Assembly: GCA_964535025.1 (NCBI GenBank)
Contig: CAZHRW010000169.1
Span: 1 to 61,073, forward strand
DNA: 61,073 nt
Source of the DNA: an uncultured Planctomycetales bacterium
Lineage (GTDB): Bacteria > Planctomycetota > Phycisphaerae > SM23-33 > FEN-1343
Direction: 5' to 3'
This document shows, piece after piece, positions 9-27,987 of the stretch. A model generated the notes under the pieces. The model saw only the letters and a list, made by a program, of their open reading frames with translations. It was not told the origin of the DNA and made no database searches. Each line of letters starts with the position of its first letter. Position 1 is the first letter of the stretch. Both the position numbers and the translations under genes were made by a program.

Positions 9-81
9 TACCCCCAAGGGGACTCGAACCCCTGTCGCCAGGATGAGAACCTGGTATCCTAGGCCGCTAGACGATGGGGGC
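9..81 (-). tRNA. tRNA-Glu (anticodon CUC)
   Basis: Reverse complement reads GCCCCCAUCGUCUAGCGGCCUAGGAUACCAGGUUCUCAUCCUGGCGACAGGGGUUCGAGUCCCCUUGGGGGUA. It has a 7-bp acceptor stem, an anticodon stem CCAGG/CCUGG with loop UUCUCAU, and a T arm AGGGG-UUCGAGU-CCCCU. CCA is not encoded. Confidence 0.9.
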
Positions 82-16283: not shown

Positions 16284-19073
16284 TTACAGCTGTCTTGCCA
16301 CTTCCACGGTCCGGTAGGCCTCCAAGAGGTCGCCGACCTTCACGTCGTCGTAGCCGGTGATCTTCATCCCGCACTCCATGCCGTTGCGCACCTCGCGGAC
16401 GTCGTCCTTGTGCCGCTTGAGCGACTCGAGCGTCCGCTCGTCCTCGATGACGATCCCGCCGCGGGTGACGCGGACCTTGGCGTTGCGGGGGATCGTCCCG
16501 TCGGTAACATAGCAACCGGCGACGGTGCCCACGCGAGAGACCTTGAACACGTCGCGGACCTCGGCGTGGCCGAGGACCTCCTCGGTGAACTCCGGGGCCA
16601 GCAGGCCCGTCATGGCCTGCGTGACCGCGTCGATCAGTTCGTAGATCACGCGGTACAGGCGGATCTCCACGCCCAGCCGCTCGGCCTCCTCCCGGGCCGT
16701 CGCGTCGGCGACGACGTGGAAGCCCAGGATGATCGCCCCGGACGCCTCGGCCAGCAGCACGTCGCTGCCGGAGATGCCGCCGACGGCGGCGTGAAGGATC
16801 TTCACCCGCACCTCGTCGGTCGACAGCTTGTTGAGGCTGTCGACAAGCACCTCGACCGAGCCCTGGACGTCGGCCTTGACGATCAGGGGCAGTTCGGTCA
16901 CCTCGCCGGCGGAGATCTGCTCGAAGAGGTTGTCCAGGGTAACCTGCTGCTTGGTGGCGAGCTTCTCCTCGCGCTGCTCCTGGCGGACCTGCTCGGCCAT
17001 TTCCTTGGCCCGCGAGAGGTCGTCGACGACGTAGACCTTGTCGCCGGCGACGGGCACGGCGTCGAGGCCGGCCACTTCGACCGGTGTGGCCGGGCCGGCC
17101 TGCTCGATCTCCTGCCCGCGATCGTTGAGGATCTGGCGGACCCGCCCGCTGCCCGGGCCGGCCAGCAGCACGTCACCGACGTGCAGCGTCCCGTCCTGCA
17201 CCAGCACCCGCGCCACGACGCCGCGACCGGGGTCCATCTCCGCTTCGATCACCGTGCCCCGCGCCGGGGCGGTCGGGTCGGCGGTCAGTTCGAGCAATTC
17301 GGCCTCCAGCGACAGCAGCTCGACGAGGTCCTCGACGCCCTCGCCGGTTTCGGCGCTGGTCTGGATGACCTCGGTCTGTCCGCCCCACTCGCGGGGCTGG
17401 AGGTCCCGCTCGGCCAACTGGCCCATCACGCGGTTGACGTTCGCGTTGGGCAGATCAATCTTGTTGAGCGCCACGACGATCGGCACGCCGGCGGCCTTGG
17501 CGTGGTTGATCGCCTCGACCGTCTGGGGCATGACCCCGTCGTCGGCGGCCACGACCAGCACCACCACGTCGGTCATGGTGGCCCCACGGGCGCGCATCTG
17601 GGTGAACGCCTCGTGGCCCGGGGTGTCCAGGAAGGTCACCGTCCGCTCGCCGTTGTCGTACCGGTACGATCCGATGTGCTGGGTGATCCCGCCGCTCTCG
17701 GTATCGACGACGGCGGCCTGCCGGATCCGGTCGAGCAAGCTGGTCTTGCCGTGATCGACGTGGCCGAGGAACGTCACCACCGGCGGCCGCGGCTCCACCT
17801 TGCCGCGCTCGCGCCGGCTGAGTTGCTCGTCGATCTCTTCCAAGTAGCTCTTCTTCCGCTTGACCGTCAGTTCGATGCCATATTCGGAGGCCAACAGTTC
17901 GGCGGCCTCCGAGGTGATCGTCTGGTTGACCGTCGCCAACTGGCCCTGGGCCATCATCTGCTTGATCAACTCGGCGCTCTTGATGCCCATGGCGGCCGAG
18001 AGGTCCTTGATGGTGATCGGCTCGTCGATCTCCACCGGTCCAGTACGGCGCGCCGTCGGCTCGCCGGCCCGTCGGGTGCTGGCGCGGTGGCGTCGCAGCC
18101 CGCCGCCGGCGGCGGCCGCAAGGCGTTCGCGGCGCTCGGTCAGGTCGCGATCGCGCCATTCCTGCAGACGCTCAGACGTCTCGACGGCCCCGCCCCGGCG
18201 GCGCGGACTGTTGCGCCGGCGCGGGCGATGGCCGCGCTCCTCCTCGGCGTGACGGCCTCGTCCGCCCCGCCGGCCGCCGGTCTCGACCGCGTCGGCCGGC
18301 TCGTCGCCGGCCACCTCCGCCGCCGGACGCGGGCGACGGCGCGGCGCCGGAACGTGGTCCGGCCGTTCCACGCGAACGACCTTGGGGCCCTGCAGTTGGG
18401 CCGGCTTGGGCACCACCTGCGGCCCGGCCGGTCCCACCGGCTCGGGCGGCTCGGGCTCGGGCGGAGCCTCCGGCTGGGGCACCTCGGCCGCCACCTCCTG
18501 CGGCGCTTCGGCCGCGGCGGGCGGCGCCTCGGGCGGCGCGGCGGGCGCGGGTGCCTCGGCCGGTTCGGCGGCCTCGACGGCCTGCTCGGCGGCCTCGCCG
18601 ACGACCGGCTCGGACGGTTCGGTGATCGGTTCGACGTGCTGGTCGGCGGCCGCTTCGGCCGCCACGACCTGCTCGGCCGTCGCGGCTTCTTCCGCTTCGG
18701 CCGCGGGCGCTTCGCCCGTCGCGACCGGCTCGGCCTCGCCAACCACCTCGGCTTCGGTCGGAGCTTGGGCTTCGGTCGCTACCTCGGCTTCCGCGGCTTC
18801 CGCGGCCTCCGCGGCCTCTTCCTGACGGCGACGACGGCGCTGCGCCGCCGCTTCCCGGTGGGCCTCTTCCAGGTCCACTGCCGCGGCGACCTCGACGGCC
18901 GAATGCAACCCGGCTTCGGTGTCGCTGAACCATTCACGAATCGTCGCTTCAAGGCCCGCCGAGAGAGCGGCCATGTGATTCTTGAGGTCCAGACCCTCGG
19001 CGCGGCACTTCTCCAGTACCTGTTTGCTGGTGACGTCAAGCTCTTTTGCGAGTTGAAAAACGCGCTTCGCCAA
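16284..19073 (-). CDS. infB: translation initiation factor IF-2
   Basis: 929 aa. N-terminal MAKRVFQLAKELDVTSKQVLEK, GTPase motifs GHVDHGKTSLLD / DTPGHEAF / NKID, and a long acidic/Pro-rich linker. Confidence 0.97.
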   Translation of the reverse strand: MAKRVFQLAKELDVTSKQVLEKCRAEGLDLKNHMAALSAGLEATIREWFSDTEAGLHSAVEVAAAVDLEEAHREAAAQRRRRRQEEAAEAAEAAEAEVATEAQAPTEAEVVGEAEPVATGEAPAAEAEEAATAEQVVAAEAAADQHVEPITEPSEPVVGEAAEQAVEAAEPAEAPAPAAPPEAPPAAAEAPQEVAAEVPQPEAPPEPEPPEPVGPAGPQVVPKPAQLQGPKVVRVERPDHVPAPRRRPRPAAEVAGDEPADAVETGGRRGGRGRHAEEERGHRPRRRNSPRRRGGAVETSERLQEWRDRDLTERRERLAAAAGGGLRRHRASTRRAGEPTARRTGPVEIDEPITIKDLSAAMGIKSAELIKQMMAQGQLATVNQTITSEAAELLASEYGIELTVKRKKSYLEEIDEQLSRRERGKVEPRPPVVTFLGHVDHGKTSLLDRIRQAAVVDTESGGITQHIGSYRYDNGERTVTFLDTPGHEAFTQMRARGATMTDVVVLVVAADDGVMPQTVEAINHAKAAGVPIVVALNKIDLPNANVNRVMGQLAERDLQPREWGGQTEVIQTSAETGEGVEDLVELLSLEAELLELTADPTAPARGTVIEAEMDPGRGVVARVLVQDGTLHVGDVLLAGPGSGRVRQILNDRGQEIEQAGPATPVEVAGLDAVPVAGDKVYVVDDLSRAKEMAEQVRQEQREEKLATKQQVTLDNLFEQISAGEVTELPLIVKADVQGSVEVLVDSLNKLSTDEVRVKILHAAVGGISGSDVLLAEASGAIILGFHVVADATAREEAERLGVEIRLYRVIYELIDAVTQAMTGLLAPEFTEEVLGHAEVRDVFKVSRVGTVAGCYVTDGTIPRNAKVRVTRGGIVIEDERTLESLKRHKDDVREVRNGMECGMKITGYDDVKVGDLLEAYRTVEVARQL

Positions 19074-19110: not shown

Positions 19111-20493
19111 TCAGGCCTGCGGCTCAGCCGACGAGGTCTCGCCGGCGTCGCCGGTTACATCCGTACGCTCTGCGTCCTGCTGTTCGCCCGTCGCGCCGTC
19201 GTCGCCGCCCAGGGTTTTCGTCGCGGCGTCTTCGCCGCCCACGGCCGCCGCGGCGGCGACGTCTTCCTCGCCCGTCGCCGCGGGCGCCGGCTCGCCCGGC
19301 GTCTCGTCGGCCTCGGCGGCGGTTTCCGCGGTGCTCTTCTTGGGCGCCTCGGCCGCCCGGCGGGCCTCTTCGCGGCAGTGCTCGACGACGGCTTCGGCCA
19401 CCGCCTCATCGATTTCGAGTTCCTCTACCAGCGATTCGGCGCCGACCTCGTCCACGTCGGCCACGGAAACCATCCCCATCGCGACGATCCGGTCCAGCAG
19501 CGTCGCGTCGGCGCCCTCGACGTCGCGGACGGCGCGCTCGAGGGCGTCCAGCCCCGCATTGAACTCCGCGGGGGTCAGGATGTCGATGTCCCACCCGGTC
19601 AGCCGCGCCGCCAGGCGGACGTTCTGGCCGCGCTTGCCGATCGCCAGGGAAAGCTGGTCCTCGTTGACCACCACGGTCGCCCGCCCCAACTCGAAGCACA
19701 GGGCGATGTCGGCCACCTCGGCCGGCTTGAGGGCGTAGCCGATGAGCACCTGGCTGGACTCGTGCCAGCGGACGATATCAATCTTCTCGCCGGCGACCTC
19801 ATCGACGATGTTCTTGATACGGCTGCCCCGTACGCCCACGCAGGCGCCGACGGGGTCGACCTTCGGGTCGAGGCTGTGGACCGCCACCTTCGTGCGGTAA
19901 CCCGCCTCGCGGGCCAGGGCCTTGATCTCGATGATCTTCTCGGCCACCTCGGGCACCTCCAGCTCGAACAGCCGCCGGATGAAGTCCGGGTGCGTCCGCG
20001 TCAGGATAATTCGTACCTGCGCGCCCTGCTCGCGAACATCCAGGACCATCGCCCGGATCCGCTCGTCGGGCAGGTGGGTCTCGCCGGGGATCTGCTCACT
20101 CTTGGGGATGATCGCCTCGGCCCGCCCGAGGTCGACGGTCATGCCCCCGCCTTCCCAGCGAATGGTACGCCCGGTGACGATCTGCCCGCGGCGCTCGAGA
20201 TACTCCTCCTGGATGCTGCCCCGCTCGGCCTCGCGGAACTTCTGAATCATCACCTGCTTGGCCGTCTGGGCCGCGATGCGGCTGAGCTGGCTCATGCTGA
20301 GGGCCTGGCCGGCCACGGTGGCGTGAATCTCGCCGCTGGTGCGGTCGATGGTCACGACCGCGTCCTCGTCCTGGCCGTACGCCTTGCGCACCGCCGAGAG
20401 CATCGCGGCTTCGAGGTCTTCCAACACCACCTCGCGATCGATATTGCGATCGCGGGCGATGCCGTCGATGATGCGAAGTAGATCTTGATTCAT
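19111..20493 (-). CDS. nusA: transcription termination/antitermination factor NusA (with an acidic C-terminal extension)
   Basis: MNQDLLRIIDGIARDRNIDREVV, plus S1 and KH regions (RVAVHSLDPKVDPVGACVGVRGSRIKNIV, GKRGQNVRLAARLTGWDIDI). Start taken at the internal ATG 20493. Confidence 0.95.
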   Translation of the reverse strand: MNQDLLRIIDGIARDRNIDREVVLEDLEAAMLSAVRKAYGQDEDAVVTIDRTSGEIHATVAGQALSMSQLSRIAAQTAKQVMIQKFREAERGSIQEEYLERRGQIVTGRTIRWEGGGMTVDLGRAEAIIPKSEQIPGETHLPDERIRAMVLDVREQGAQVRIILTRTHPDFIRRLFELEVPEVAEKIIEIKALAREAGYRTKVAVHSLDPKVDPVGACVGVRGSRIKNIVDEVAGEKIDIVRWHESSQVLIGYALKPAEVADIALCFELGRATVVVNEDQLSLAIGKRGQNVRLAARLTGWDIDILTPAEFNAGLDALERAVRDVEGADATLLDRIVAMGMVSVADVDEVGAESLVEELEIDEAVAEAVVEHCREEARRAAEAPKKSTAETAAEADETPGEPAPAATGEEDVAAAAAVGGEDAATKTLGGDDGATGEQQDAERTDVTGDAGETSSAEPQA

Positions 20494-20619
20494 GCTGCCA
20501 CCTGCATTCTCTGCGGCGCCACTCGACGGCCTGATCTCACCAGGAAACTGCCTCACCGCCAAGCCGTCCGCAGGCAACGCCTCGAGCCGCCGGCTGGTGA
20601 AGCACGCTCCTCGTTCAAA

Positions 20620-20652
20620 ACACAAAAAAAAGTGGGTCAGCGGCCCACTTTC
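20620..20652 (-). terminator. intrinsic terminator (short stem plus U8)
   Basis: Minus strand reads AAAGUGGG-CCGCUGA-CCCACUUU followed by UUUUUUUU (A-run 20624-20631 on the plus strand). Confidence 0.7.
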
Positions 20653-20938
20653 CAAACCAGGAACTCGAATTGGCTCACCTTTACGTCATAAGCGGTCGCC
20701 ACCGCCTCGGGGCCAACACGTCGGACCCGCCCGGCGCGCGATCTTCGCCGCCGTCGCGAGCCCCGGACCAGTCGAAATGGCATAGTGCCGTCGCACTGGT
20801 CTTACGCTCTGTCGAGATGGAGGTTCACTCCAGCTCTCCTGGTTCGAACAAGTGTCCATACAACAAGACCCGACCGCTCCACCCTCGTCGGGCGAACGCC
20901 GGCGAGCCTCACATCCACGCCCCCCGCAGGGGACCGAG
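20624..20938 (-). ncRNA. candidate structured non-coding RNA or long nusA leader (about 315 nt), family not recognised
   Basis: Bounded by a consensus promoter and the terminator. GC content drops locally. There is no SD-preceded ORF. Helices seen: GAGCUGGAG-UGAAC-CUCCAUCUC, GACCAGU..ACUGGUC, CCCC-UGC-GGGG, and long-range GAGCGGUCG/CGACCGCUU. Confidence 0.5.
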
Positions 20939-20944
20939 AAACTG

Positions 20945-20972
20945 ATTATAAGGACGCACCAGGCCGTGTCAA
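20945..20972 (-). promoter_or_regulatory. near-perfect sigma70 promoter (TTGACA, 16 nt, TATAAT)
   Basis: Minus strand has TTGACA at 20972-20967 and TATAAT at 20950-20945. An A/T-rich stretch (GATTTTGGT) lies just upstream. Confidence 0.7.
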
Positions 20973-21136
20973 ACCAAAATCCCGCCTGCCCCTGTCGAGA
21001 TTTCCAGTAAAATAATAACCGTAAGCTCCGCCACATCAAGGCGATACAAAAACGATCCCCGCGGGACCCTCGACAAACCCCCGCTGGGCCGTACCGTATC
21101 GGCGCCGATAAGAAAGCCGGAAGGCAAGCCGGACTC

Positions 21137-21288: not shown

Positions 21289-21708
21289 ATGAAACGCATG
21301 ACCCTTACGTCGCTGATGCTGCCGCTGGCCCTCGTCGTCGGCTGCGCCCAACCGGTCAACGAGACGCTCGAGTTGCCCGAGGAGCAGATGACCGCCGCCG
21401 AGACGACGACGGCCGACGACTCGCCGAGATTCACCTACGAGACAGCCGACGAGCTGCCGCCGCCGACGCTGCCGCCCGCCCCGAAGGCGCCCGCCCAGGC
21501 GGTGGCCCCCGCGGCGGCGCCGCCCCCGCCGTCGGAAACACCCGCGCAGCGCACCTACGTGGTGCAGGACGGCGACACGCTCTGGCAGATCTCCCGCCGG
21601 TACTACGGCCGCGCCAGCCACGAAAACGTCCGCCGAATCCTCCAGGCCAACCCGGAACTCGAACCGACGCGGATGCGGATCGGCCAGGAGATCGTCATCC
21701 CCGAGTGA
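21289..21708 (+). CDS. LysM peptidoglycan-binding lipoprotein
   Basis: Lipobox LALVVGCAQ, a Pro/Ala linker, and a C-terminal LysM (YVVQDGDTLWQISRRYYG...IGQEIVIP). Confidence 0.85.
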   Translation: MKRMTLTSLMLPLALVVGCAQPVNETLELPEEQMTAAETTTADDSPRFTYETADELPPPTLPPAPKAPAQAVAPAAAPPPPSETPAQRTYVVQDGDTLWQISRRYYGRASHENVRRILQANPELEPTRMRIGQEIVIPE

Positions 21709-27902: not shown

Positions 27903-27987
27903 GGTAGGGTGGCAGAGTGGTCGATTGCGCCGGTTTTGAAAACCGGTGAACCGCAAGGTTCCGTGGGTTCGAATCCCACCCCTACCG
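27903..27987 (+). tRNA. tRNA-Ser (anticodon UGA)
   Basis: GGTAGGG acceptor pairs with CCCTACC. Anticodon stem CCGGT/ACCGG with loop TTTGAAA. It has a long variable arm (class II) and a T arm GTGGG-TTCGAAT-CCCAC. CCA is not encoded. Confidence 0.9.

Follow-up and report, generated by a model that had tools for sequence, protein, structure and literature searches.

The rimP-leader, located upstream of the rimP-nusA-infB operon, has been described as the most ubiquitous transcription attenuator. It is a terminator whose stem, GGGc(...)gCCC, shows unusual conservation and precedes a U-stretch, and it is found 4-130 nucleotides (nt) before the first gene of the operon (Naville and Gautheret, 2010, Genome Biol 11:R97; PMC2965389). 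An antiterminator is not visible in this class, and NusA has been considered the likely effector (PMC2965389). In Bacillus subtilis, where the ylxS(rimP)-nusA leader comprises ~180 nt (PMC2965389), NusA-stimulated termination in the leader autoregulates nusA, according to the work of Mondal et al. (2016) as summarised in PMC12288461. For the Escherichia coli metY-rimP-nusA-infB operon, terminators behind the tRNA gene metY and an autoregulation or repression by NusA have been reported (Plumbridge, 1985; Nakamura, 1985, to the extent cited in PMC2965389). The published list of rimP-leaders holds no planctomycete entry, although Rhodopirellula was among the genomes analysed (PMC2965389). Here, we describe the nusA-infB locus of an uncultured Planctomycetales bacterium, which lies on a stretch of 61,073 nt (contig CAZHRW010000169.1, in the following the window). 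The region upstream of nusA on the minus strand had been singled out in an earlier note as an orphan, structured transcription unit and interpreted either as a free-standing, novel small RNA (sRNA) or as a long leader with an attenuator. With a probability of roughly 0.72, we regard it as the promoter of the nusA-infB operon together with an untranslated leader of 315 nt, at the end of which a rimP-leader attenuator would limit the synthesis of NusA.

The terminator comprises the arms AAAGUGGG and CCCACUUUUUUUU, which form a stem of 10 pairs around a 7-nt loop and are followed by a run of eight U residues (U8). A search for its exact pattern has yielded a single instance in the window and 0 in 100 shuffled sequences, and 315 nt separate the predicted transcription start (~20938) from the last U of the tract, as had been estimated before. 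The hairpin reaches -9.5 kcal/mol in its extended form, and its core of 5 bp is weak (-6.0 kcal/mol), as expected for a regulatory, factor-dependent terminator. The sequence conforms to the conserved GGGc(...)gCCC stem, its 5' arm being rich in G and its 3' arm in C (AAAGUGGGC-CGCUGA-CCCACUUU), and near-identical elements have been published for Anaeromyxobacter (CGAAAGTGGGCCGCGGTCGCCCACTTTTTC), Nostoc (GGAAGTGGGTTAATGCCCACTTTTTTT) and Syntrophomonas (ACAAAGTGGGTACCTGCCCACTTTTTC) (Supplementary data 1, PMC2965389). The window shares with the described rimP-leaders the sequence-conserved stem …AAGUGGGc…gCCCACUU, the subsequent U-tract and the position 5' of the nusA-infB operon, but it differs from them in the absence of rimP, so that the attenuator directly precedes nusA. 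As nusA is the first gene of the operon here, the 130 nt that separate the U-tract from the nusA ATG agree with the published position of the class.

A covariance model (R1), built from 34 published rimP-leader sequences that all derive from non-planctomycete phyla, has given one significant match when applied to both strands of the window, at 20654-20621 with 30.8 bits and an E-value of 6.8e-5 (shortened calibration). For comparison, 160 related loci (~758 kb) have been collected by a NusA-based scan of species-representative genomes and another of metagenomes, nearly all of them classified as Phycisphaerae or Planctomycetota. Among these, R1 has found 67 matches (30 + 37) at E<=0.05, every one of them on the nusA strand and immediately upstream of nusA, and none elsewhere in the collection. 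Likewise, the related loci have the stem AAGUGGG...CCCACUUUUU conserved before nusA throughout, and they contain no further copy of it. These comparisons support the assignment of the terminator to the published rimP-leader attenuator class.

The sigma-70-type promoter, which had been ranked as the best match of its kind together with the A/T-rich stretch upstream of it, is indeed the sole 12/12 match on both strands of the window, the next best site reaching 10/12. The GC content drops to 0.50-0.64 across 20600-21050, as noted earlier, compared with ~0.65-0.75 in the flanking genes. Between promoter and terminator, the only open reading frames (ORFs) are a 48-codon ATG frame and a 311-codon frame that is regarded as a GC artefact and encloses the 57-codon ATG frame mentioned in the earlier note. 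Neither the 48- nor the 311-codon ORF has a match in Pfam, and a protein-coding reading of the leader has been rejected, in agreement with the previous view that a protein-like ORF is missing. No promoter-like site has been recognised in the spacer between attenuator and nusA (20494-20620), and in the relatives the gap between U-tract and nusA is short (25-157 nt, median ~57, with 25-60 nt being common), leaving in many loci too little room for a promoter and a 5' untranslated stretch. Consequently, nusA-infB must be transcribed by read-through, and the requirement for read-through argues for a leader with an attenuator rather than for a free-standing sRNA gene. For rimP, the window contains no suitable ORF, and tblastn with E. 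coli and B. subtilis RimP queries, a search of limited sensitivity, has returned no match in the window (E<=10) or in the 160 loci (E<=1e-2). The claims that nusA begins ~130 nt behind the U-tract without a recognisable promoter and that rimP is absent have thereby been upheld.

Like the window, the ylxS(rimP)-nusA operon of B. subtilis has a leader of comparable size, in which an intrinsic terminator with a weak hairpin gates nusA without an antiterminator; the mechanism, however, has been demonstrated by experiment in B. subtilis only, and the two leaders are unrelated in their upstream sequence. With the E. coli operon, the window has in common a strongly transcribed, structured RNA that ends in terminators, with nusA-infB reached by read-through, whereas the upstream RNA of E. 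coli is a tRNA gene and the leader of the window matches no tRNA-like or otherwise known RNA. ARAGORN has detected neither a transfer-messenger RNA (tmRNA) nor another tRNA-like gene in the leader, and cmscan of the window against Rfam has given no leader match at the gathering score, and no meaningful one at E<=10 either. The family models of tmRNA, RNase P, signal recognition particle RNA and 6S RNA are therefore without a match in Rfam and ARAGORN, consistent with the lack of their signature sequences reported earlier. The same holds for 20 relatives, in which Rfam has found only tRNAs or chance matches.

The origin of the leader has become apparent from the relatives. A single-sequence nhmmer search with the intergenic region has reached only the three closest ones (L001, L081, L088), and the lineage-specific 5' part of the leader (20855-20938) is unmatched in every relative by nhmmer. 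Iteration with a profile has tied the core (20854-20624) to the nusA-upstream region in 75 of the 160 loci, with E-values that refer to a small database, as only nusA-upstream DNA was searched. About 20 of the loci whose core can be aligned contain an intact gene of 390-430 codons, the end of which lies 190-350 nt upstream of nusA; this gene carries the Pfam domains ABC_tran, OB_MalK and TOBE_2 and encodes a MalK/UgpC-like ABC ATPase with the C-terminus ...VHLFEPGETGVNVSL..., also read as ...MYIDMNRVHLFEPGETGVNVSL...SA*. Compared with these C-termini, the window retains HLFEPGE (20854-20834), followed by a 1-nt deletion that shifts the frame and by GVNLHLDRA* (20831-20802). In the window and its closest relatives, the MalK-like gene is absent and only these last codons are recognisable, and tblastn has found no MalK-like ABC ATPase elsewhere in the window at E<=1e-3. 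Two loci, L031 with a 72-codon relic and a best promoter site of 9/12 and L100 with 139 open codons and a 12/12 promoter, look like intermediate truncation states.

The occurrence of the promoter follows that of the gene. Almost every locus that lacks an intact ATPase gene, the truncated L100 among them, has a near-consensus promoter (11-12/12, always with a 16-nt spacer, TTGACN-16-TATAAT) at a distance of 103-230 nt upstream of the core, while the promoter score of the loci that keep the intact gene never exceeds 9/12. Listed by locus, this dichotomy of promoter and gene runs between L001-L012 and L081-L117 on the one side and L013-L056 on the other. In many relatives of the window, the attenuator accordingly differs from the described rimP-leaders in that it sits in the 3' untranslated region (UTR) of the MalK-like gene and not behind a promoter. 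Judged from the translated remnants, the first conserved part of the leader is a descendant of the 3' end of a MalK-like gene. Most likely, the gene was lost in the lineage of the window, its 3' end was kept as RNA and the consensus promoter was gained, which would then have taken over transcription.

The attenuator is preceded by a conserved, lineage-specific domain of ~230 nt, and the fold of the whole leader is somewhat more stable than that of shuffled sequences (z -2.3). In the minimum free energy (MFE) folds of the window and of many relatives, the domain is closed by a long-range helix, P1, with 11 pairs in the window, the 3' strand of which directly adjoins the attenuator (Table 1). 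Of all features of the domain, a long-range helix with this 3' strand is the most robust. In the alignment on which the P1 pair counts are based (A2, 56 sequences), 70% of the cells are paired as against 38-58% with a slid partner, and double changes have been observed in 7 of 10 pairs. In the ATPase-bearing loci, the 5' strand of P1 is at the same time the coding sequence for FEPG, and the third position of the Glu codon varies in concert with the distal strand (GAG-C 7, GAA-U 6, GAG.U 3, mismatch 2). The overlap between helix and coding sequence, ~290-190 nt before nusA, has been seen in L013, L014, L023, L025, L027, L029, L051, L113 and other ATPase-bearing loci. The synonymous third positions of both Phe and Glu in ...HLFEPGE... 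covary with the non-coding strand that lies ~200 nt downstream beside the attenuator.

The same attenuator-adjacent strand can be engaged otherwise. In the alternative arrangement, a local stem sequesters the first partner and a second partner located just 5' of hairpin H2 takes its place, whereby 72% of the cells are paired as against 23-45% for slid positions, and 0 of 500 shuffles reach the observed number of paired cells, of cells changed on both sides or the covariation score. The alternative is favoured in promoter-bearing loci (84% and 72% paired), and P1 in ATPase-bearing loci (77%) and in the window (9/10). On this comparative evidence, the strand next to the attenuator is one with two mutually exclusive 5' partners, of which the alternative is supported at least as well as P1. 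The local helices proposed before, H1, H2 and CCCC-UGC-GGGG (-7.2 kcal/mol), fold as stated. At the position of H1, the relatives show a hairpin of different sequence, and at that of H2 they show GCCGG...CCGGC with the ATPase stop codon near the tip. A further long-range pair from the earlier note, GAGCGGUCG/CGACCGCUU, is complementary as claimed, but it is absent from the MFE fold and devoid of comparative support, its 5' half lying in the non-conserved segment, and it has been dropped as a candidate.

Riboswitches and leader-peptide attenuators offer a structural parallel, as they likewise combine a domain closed by a helix beside an intrinsic terminator with mutually exclusive pairings and possibly with a short ORF. 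Unlike in riboswitches, no ligand and no known aptamer (Rfam) is found here, and the overlap recognised between terminator and antiterminator comprises the A-run only. Across the 34 rimP-leaders published from other phyla, a helix adjoining the attenuator is not significant (mean z -0.4, p 0.07). In published rimP-leaders of Rhizobiales, Bradyrhizobium and Myxococcus, the purine run that immediately precedes GUGGG has a potential pairing partner a short way upstream, and the Myxococcus example UUUUCGA...UCGAAAA resembles a miniature P1.

Table 1. Features of the nusA-infB operon and its upstream region in the window, with positions counted along the forward strand.
Feature	Positions	Strand	Sequence, properties and basis
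A/T-rich stretch, UP-element-like	21000..21018	minus	upstream of the -35 hexamer; read from sequence, putative function
Sigma-70-type promoter	20945..20972	minus	TTGACA 20972-20967, 16-nt spacer, TATAAT 20950-20945; predicted start ~20938
Lineage-specific 5' leader part	20855..20938	minus	contains the CCCC-UGC-GGGG hairpin, 20932-20922
MalK-like gene relic, last ~18-20 codons	20802..20854	minus	three-frame translation against C-termini in relatives
P1 5' strand	20837..20848	minus	UUCGAACCAGGA; pairs with 20662-20651 in MFE folds
Hairpin H1	20814..20836	minus	GAGCUGGAG-UGAAC-CUCCAUCUC; -8.5 kcal/mol
Alternative 5' partner	20798..20804	minus	UAAGACC; partner of 20658-20652; 6/7 pairs possible in the window; supported across relatives
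Hairpin H2	20766..20801	minus	GACCAGU...ACUGGUC; -17.6 kcal/mol, z -4.2
P1 3' strand	20651..20662	minus	UCCUGGUUUGGA; directly abuts the attenuator and shares its A-run
rimP-leader-type attenuator	20621..20654	minus	AAAGUGGG-CCGCUGA-CCCACUUU and U8 tract (20631-20624); terminator scan and covariance model
Spacer between attenuator and nusA	20494..20620	minus	without recognisable promoter (promoter scan)
nusA	19111..20493	minus	ORF of 460 aa, ATG at 20493; Pfam NusA_N, S1, KH_5, KH_NusA_C
infB (IF2, 929 aa)	16284..19073	minus	37 nt after nusA; GTPase motif GHVDHGKT in the translation

The name of infB has been given from features of its sequence only. Further upstream, just beyond the main promoter, the minus strand carries a weak promoter-like site (9/12, 21039-21012) and a second terminator-like hairpin, GGTCCCGCGGGGATC followed by GTTTTTGT (21068-21054). 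Upstream of these two sites there is no gene on this strand, and a divergent LysM gene starts at 21289 on the plus strand. The only RNA genes detected in the window are those of tRNA-Glu(CUC) at 9-81 (minus) and tRNA-Ser(UGA) at 27903-27987 (plus).

Taken as the leader of the nusA-infB operon, the region would function as follows. Transcription of the operon would begin at the consensus promoter, and the following 315 nt would constitute a 5' leader that ends, directly before nusA, in an intrinsic terminator which is weak and belongs to the pan-bacterial rimP-leader class. Transcripts would either stop at U8, releasing a terminated leader RNA of ~315 nt, or read through into nusA-infB. Following the analogy to B. 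subtilis and E. coli, NusA may stimulate termination at the short hairpin and in this way limit its own synthesis and that of IF2. As the motif is homologous to the rimP-leader, NusA is the presumed effector at the terminator of the window as well, which would fit the NusA-sensitive attenuator of nusA-infB put forward in the earlier note; the leader and its short-stem attenuator have stood up to the comparison, with the class found before nusA in 67 loci and with short gaps throughout. The long-range helix that closes the ~230-nt domain probably tunes the formation of the terminator hairpin, e.g., by the availability of the A-run or by stacking, with one of the partner strands lying, in relatives, within the last 20 codons of the upstream MalK-like gene.

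Several points weigh against this interpretation. Start site, 3' end and read-through at the locus are predictions, and the dependence on NusA has been carried over from distant organisms. A terminated RNA of 315 nt that originates from a consensus promoter could in addition act in trans. P1 does not pair in a considerable minority of the sequences, H1 and H2 do appear when sequences are folded singly but are out of register between them, which makes their covariation uncountable, and RNAalifold on the 56-sequence alignment and its sub-blocks has recovered the terminator only. The shuffle controls leave the relatedness of the sequences uncorrected, and the E-values of R1 are rough. Rfam, the 'rimP' leader family of which is said to go back to the 2010 study of Naville and Gautheret, has not reported the element in a cmscan (release 15) of the 141-nt terminator region, even at E<=10. 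We take this non-detection as reflecting the limits of the Rfam models and their seed and not of the motif as defined in PMC2965389; the curated family appears to be too narrow for this phylum. The novelty that the earlier note had tied to an Rfam search is hence found in part: there is no match, but only as the models miss this variant, and the terminator itself is already present in the literature.

A promoter of consensus quality and an intrinsic terminator with U8, which flank a unit of ~315 nt without a credible ORF, are what one would see in a free-standing gene for a trans-acting sRNA, with nusA being transcribed separately and the adjacency being incidental or historical; the stability of the fold and the conservation of the core in 75 loci would fit such a gene, too. 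The class of its terminator, however, has been defined by attenuators in the 5' UTR of just this operon, and none of the 67 R1 matches occurs away from nusA. The missing promoter between the element and nusA, with gaps as short as 25-31 nt in relatives, and the ~20 relatives that have no promoter at all and in which a protein gene has the element as its 3' end and 3' UTR, also speak against it. We hold an independent sRNA gene to be unlikely, and the orphan, novel sRNA of the earlier note finds no support, as the element is always linked to nusA, is in part a relic of the MalK-like gene and ends in a known motif. Since the window does contain the frameshifted relic of an ATPase C-terminus, L031 and L100 show intermediate truncations and the first 85 nt of the leader lack conservation, one may also think of a decaying remnant, i.e., of the 3' end, the 3' UTR and the ordinary terminator of a lost MalK-like gene that exert no regulation, so that the promoter simply reads through poorly terminating junk. 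Against mere decay stand the compensatory changes in the helices and the ~230-nt core that is shared by relatives with 56-80% NusA identity, most of which no longer encode the ATPase. The sequence of the terminator stem, moreover, is conserved across bacterial phyla, unlike that of ordinary terminators, and a remnant without function seems highly improbable to us.

A different kind of control, alternative or additional to the one above, would arise if ribosomes on a short leader ORF, or on the end of the MalK-like ORF, decide which helix forms by the terminator, which would couple the transcription of nusA-infB to translation capacity or to IF2. The leader ORF in question would consist of a Shine-Dalgarno-like GGGAG, 7-11 nt, GUG/AUG and 8-14 codons; in the window, AGGAG (20840-20836) is followed after 7 nt by GUG at 20828 and an 8-codon frame to UAA (20804-20802). 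Where an intact ATPase gene is lacking (36 loci), the frame inherited from it is open for exactly 19 codons to the ancestral stop in 26 cases, and an invariant GGAG with GUG/AUG 8-11 nt further on, at codon 5 or 6, is found in ~30. Synonymous changes are enriched in the ancestral frame (0.39 vs 0.21 and 0.29), a modest and weak signal, and in ATPase-bearing loci the 5' strand of P1 lies inside the ORF. Yet the variability of the codon positions is flat (0.81/0.93/0.94), the peptides are poorly conserved, and the frames of the window, L001 and L002 are different or shorter. Besides, 19 open GC-rich codons are unsurprising in a sequence inherited from a gene, and the same nucleotides serve as helix strands, all of which makes a translation-sensing attenuator improbable in our view. 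Somewhat broader, and to be entertained only tentatively as a rather doubtful extension of the leader interpretation, is the idea that the ~230-nt domain acts as a true sensor gating the NusA attenuator, with the terminator-adjacent strand switching partners on a signal; a ribosome on the preceding ORF or mini-ORF, the binding of IF2 or NusA, or a small ligand could provide this signal.

Returning to the preferred leader of nusA-infB, the attenuator belongs to what is known already, and the absence of rimP, the MalK-derived leader part, the gain of a promoter and the conserved two-state helix beside the attenuator are new. The locus extends the most widespread known transcription attenuator to Phycisphaerae that have no rimP at the locus. 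In addition, the last ~60-100 nt of a gene that survive as RNA behind a new promoter document the conversion of a 3' UTR element into a 5' leader. The locus places a large, conserved domain that can be closed by either of two helices beside an attenuator that has been thought to act without alternative structures, and it presents synonymous codon choices in a MalK-like gene that covary with a non-coding strand 200 nt away. Should the domain be a true sensor, it would be the first conformational control in the rimP-leader class, which has been described as lacking an antiterminator, and an RNA switch built from, and still overlapping with, the 3' end of a protein-coding gene. The region also offers a testable system for the modulation of NusA-dependent termination by upstream RNA folding or translation.

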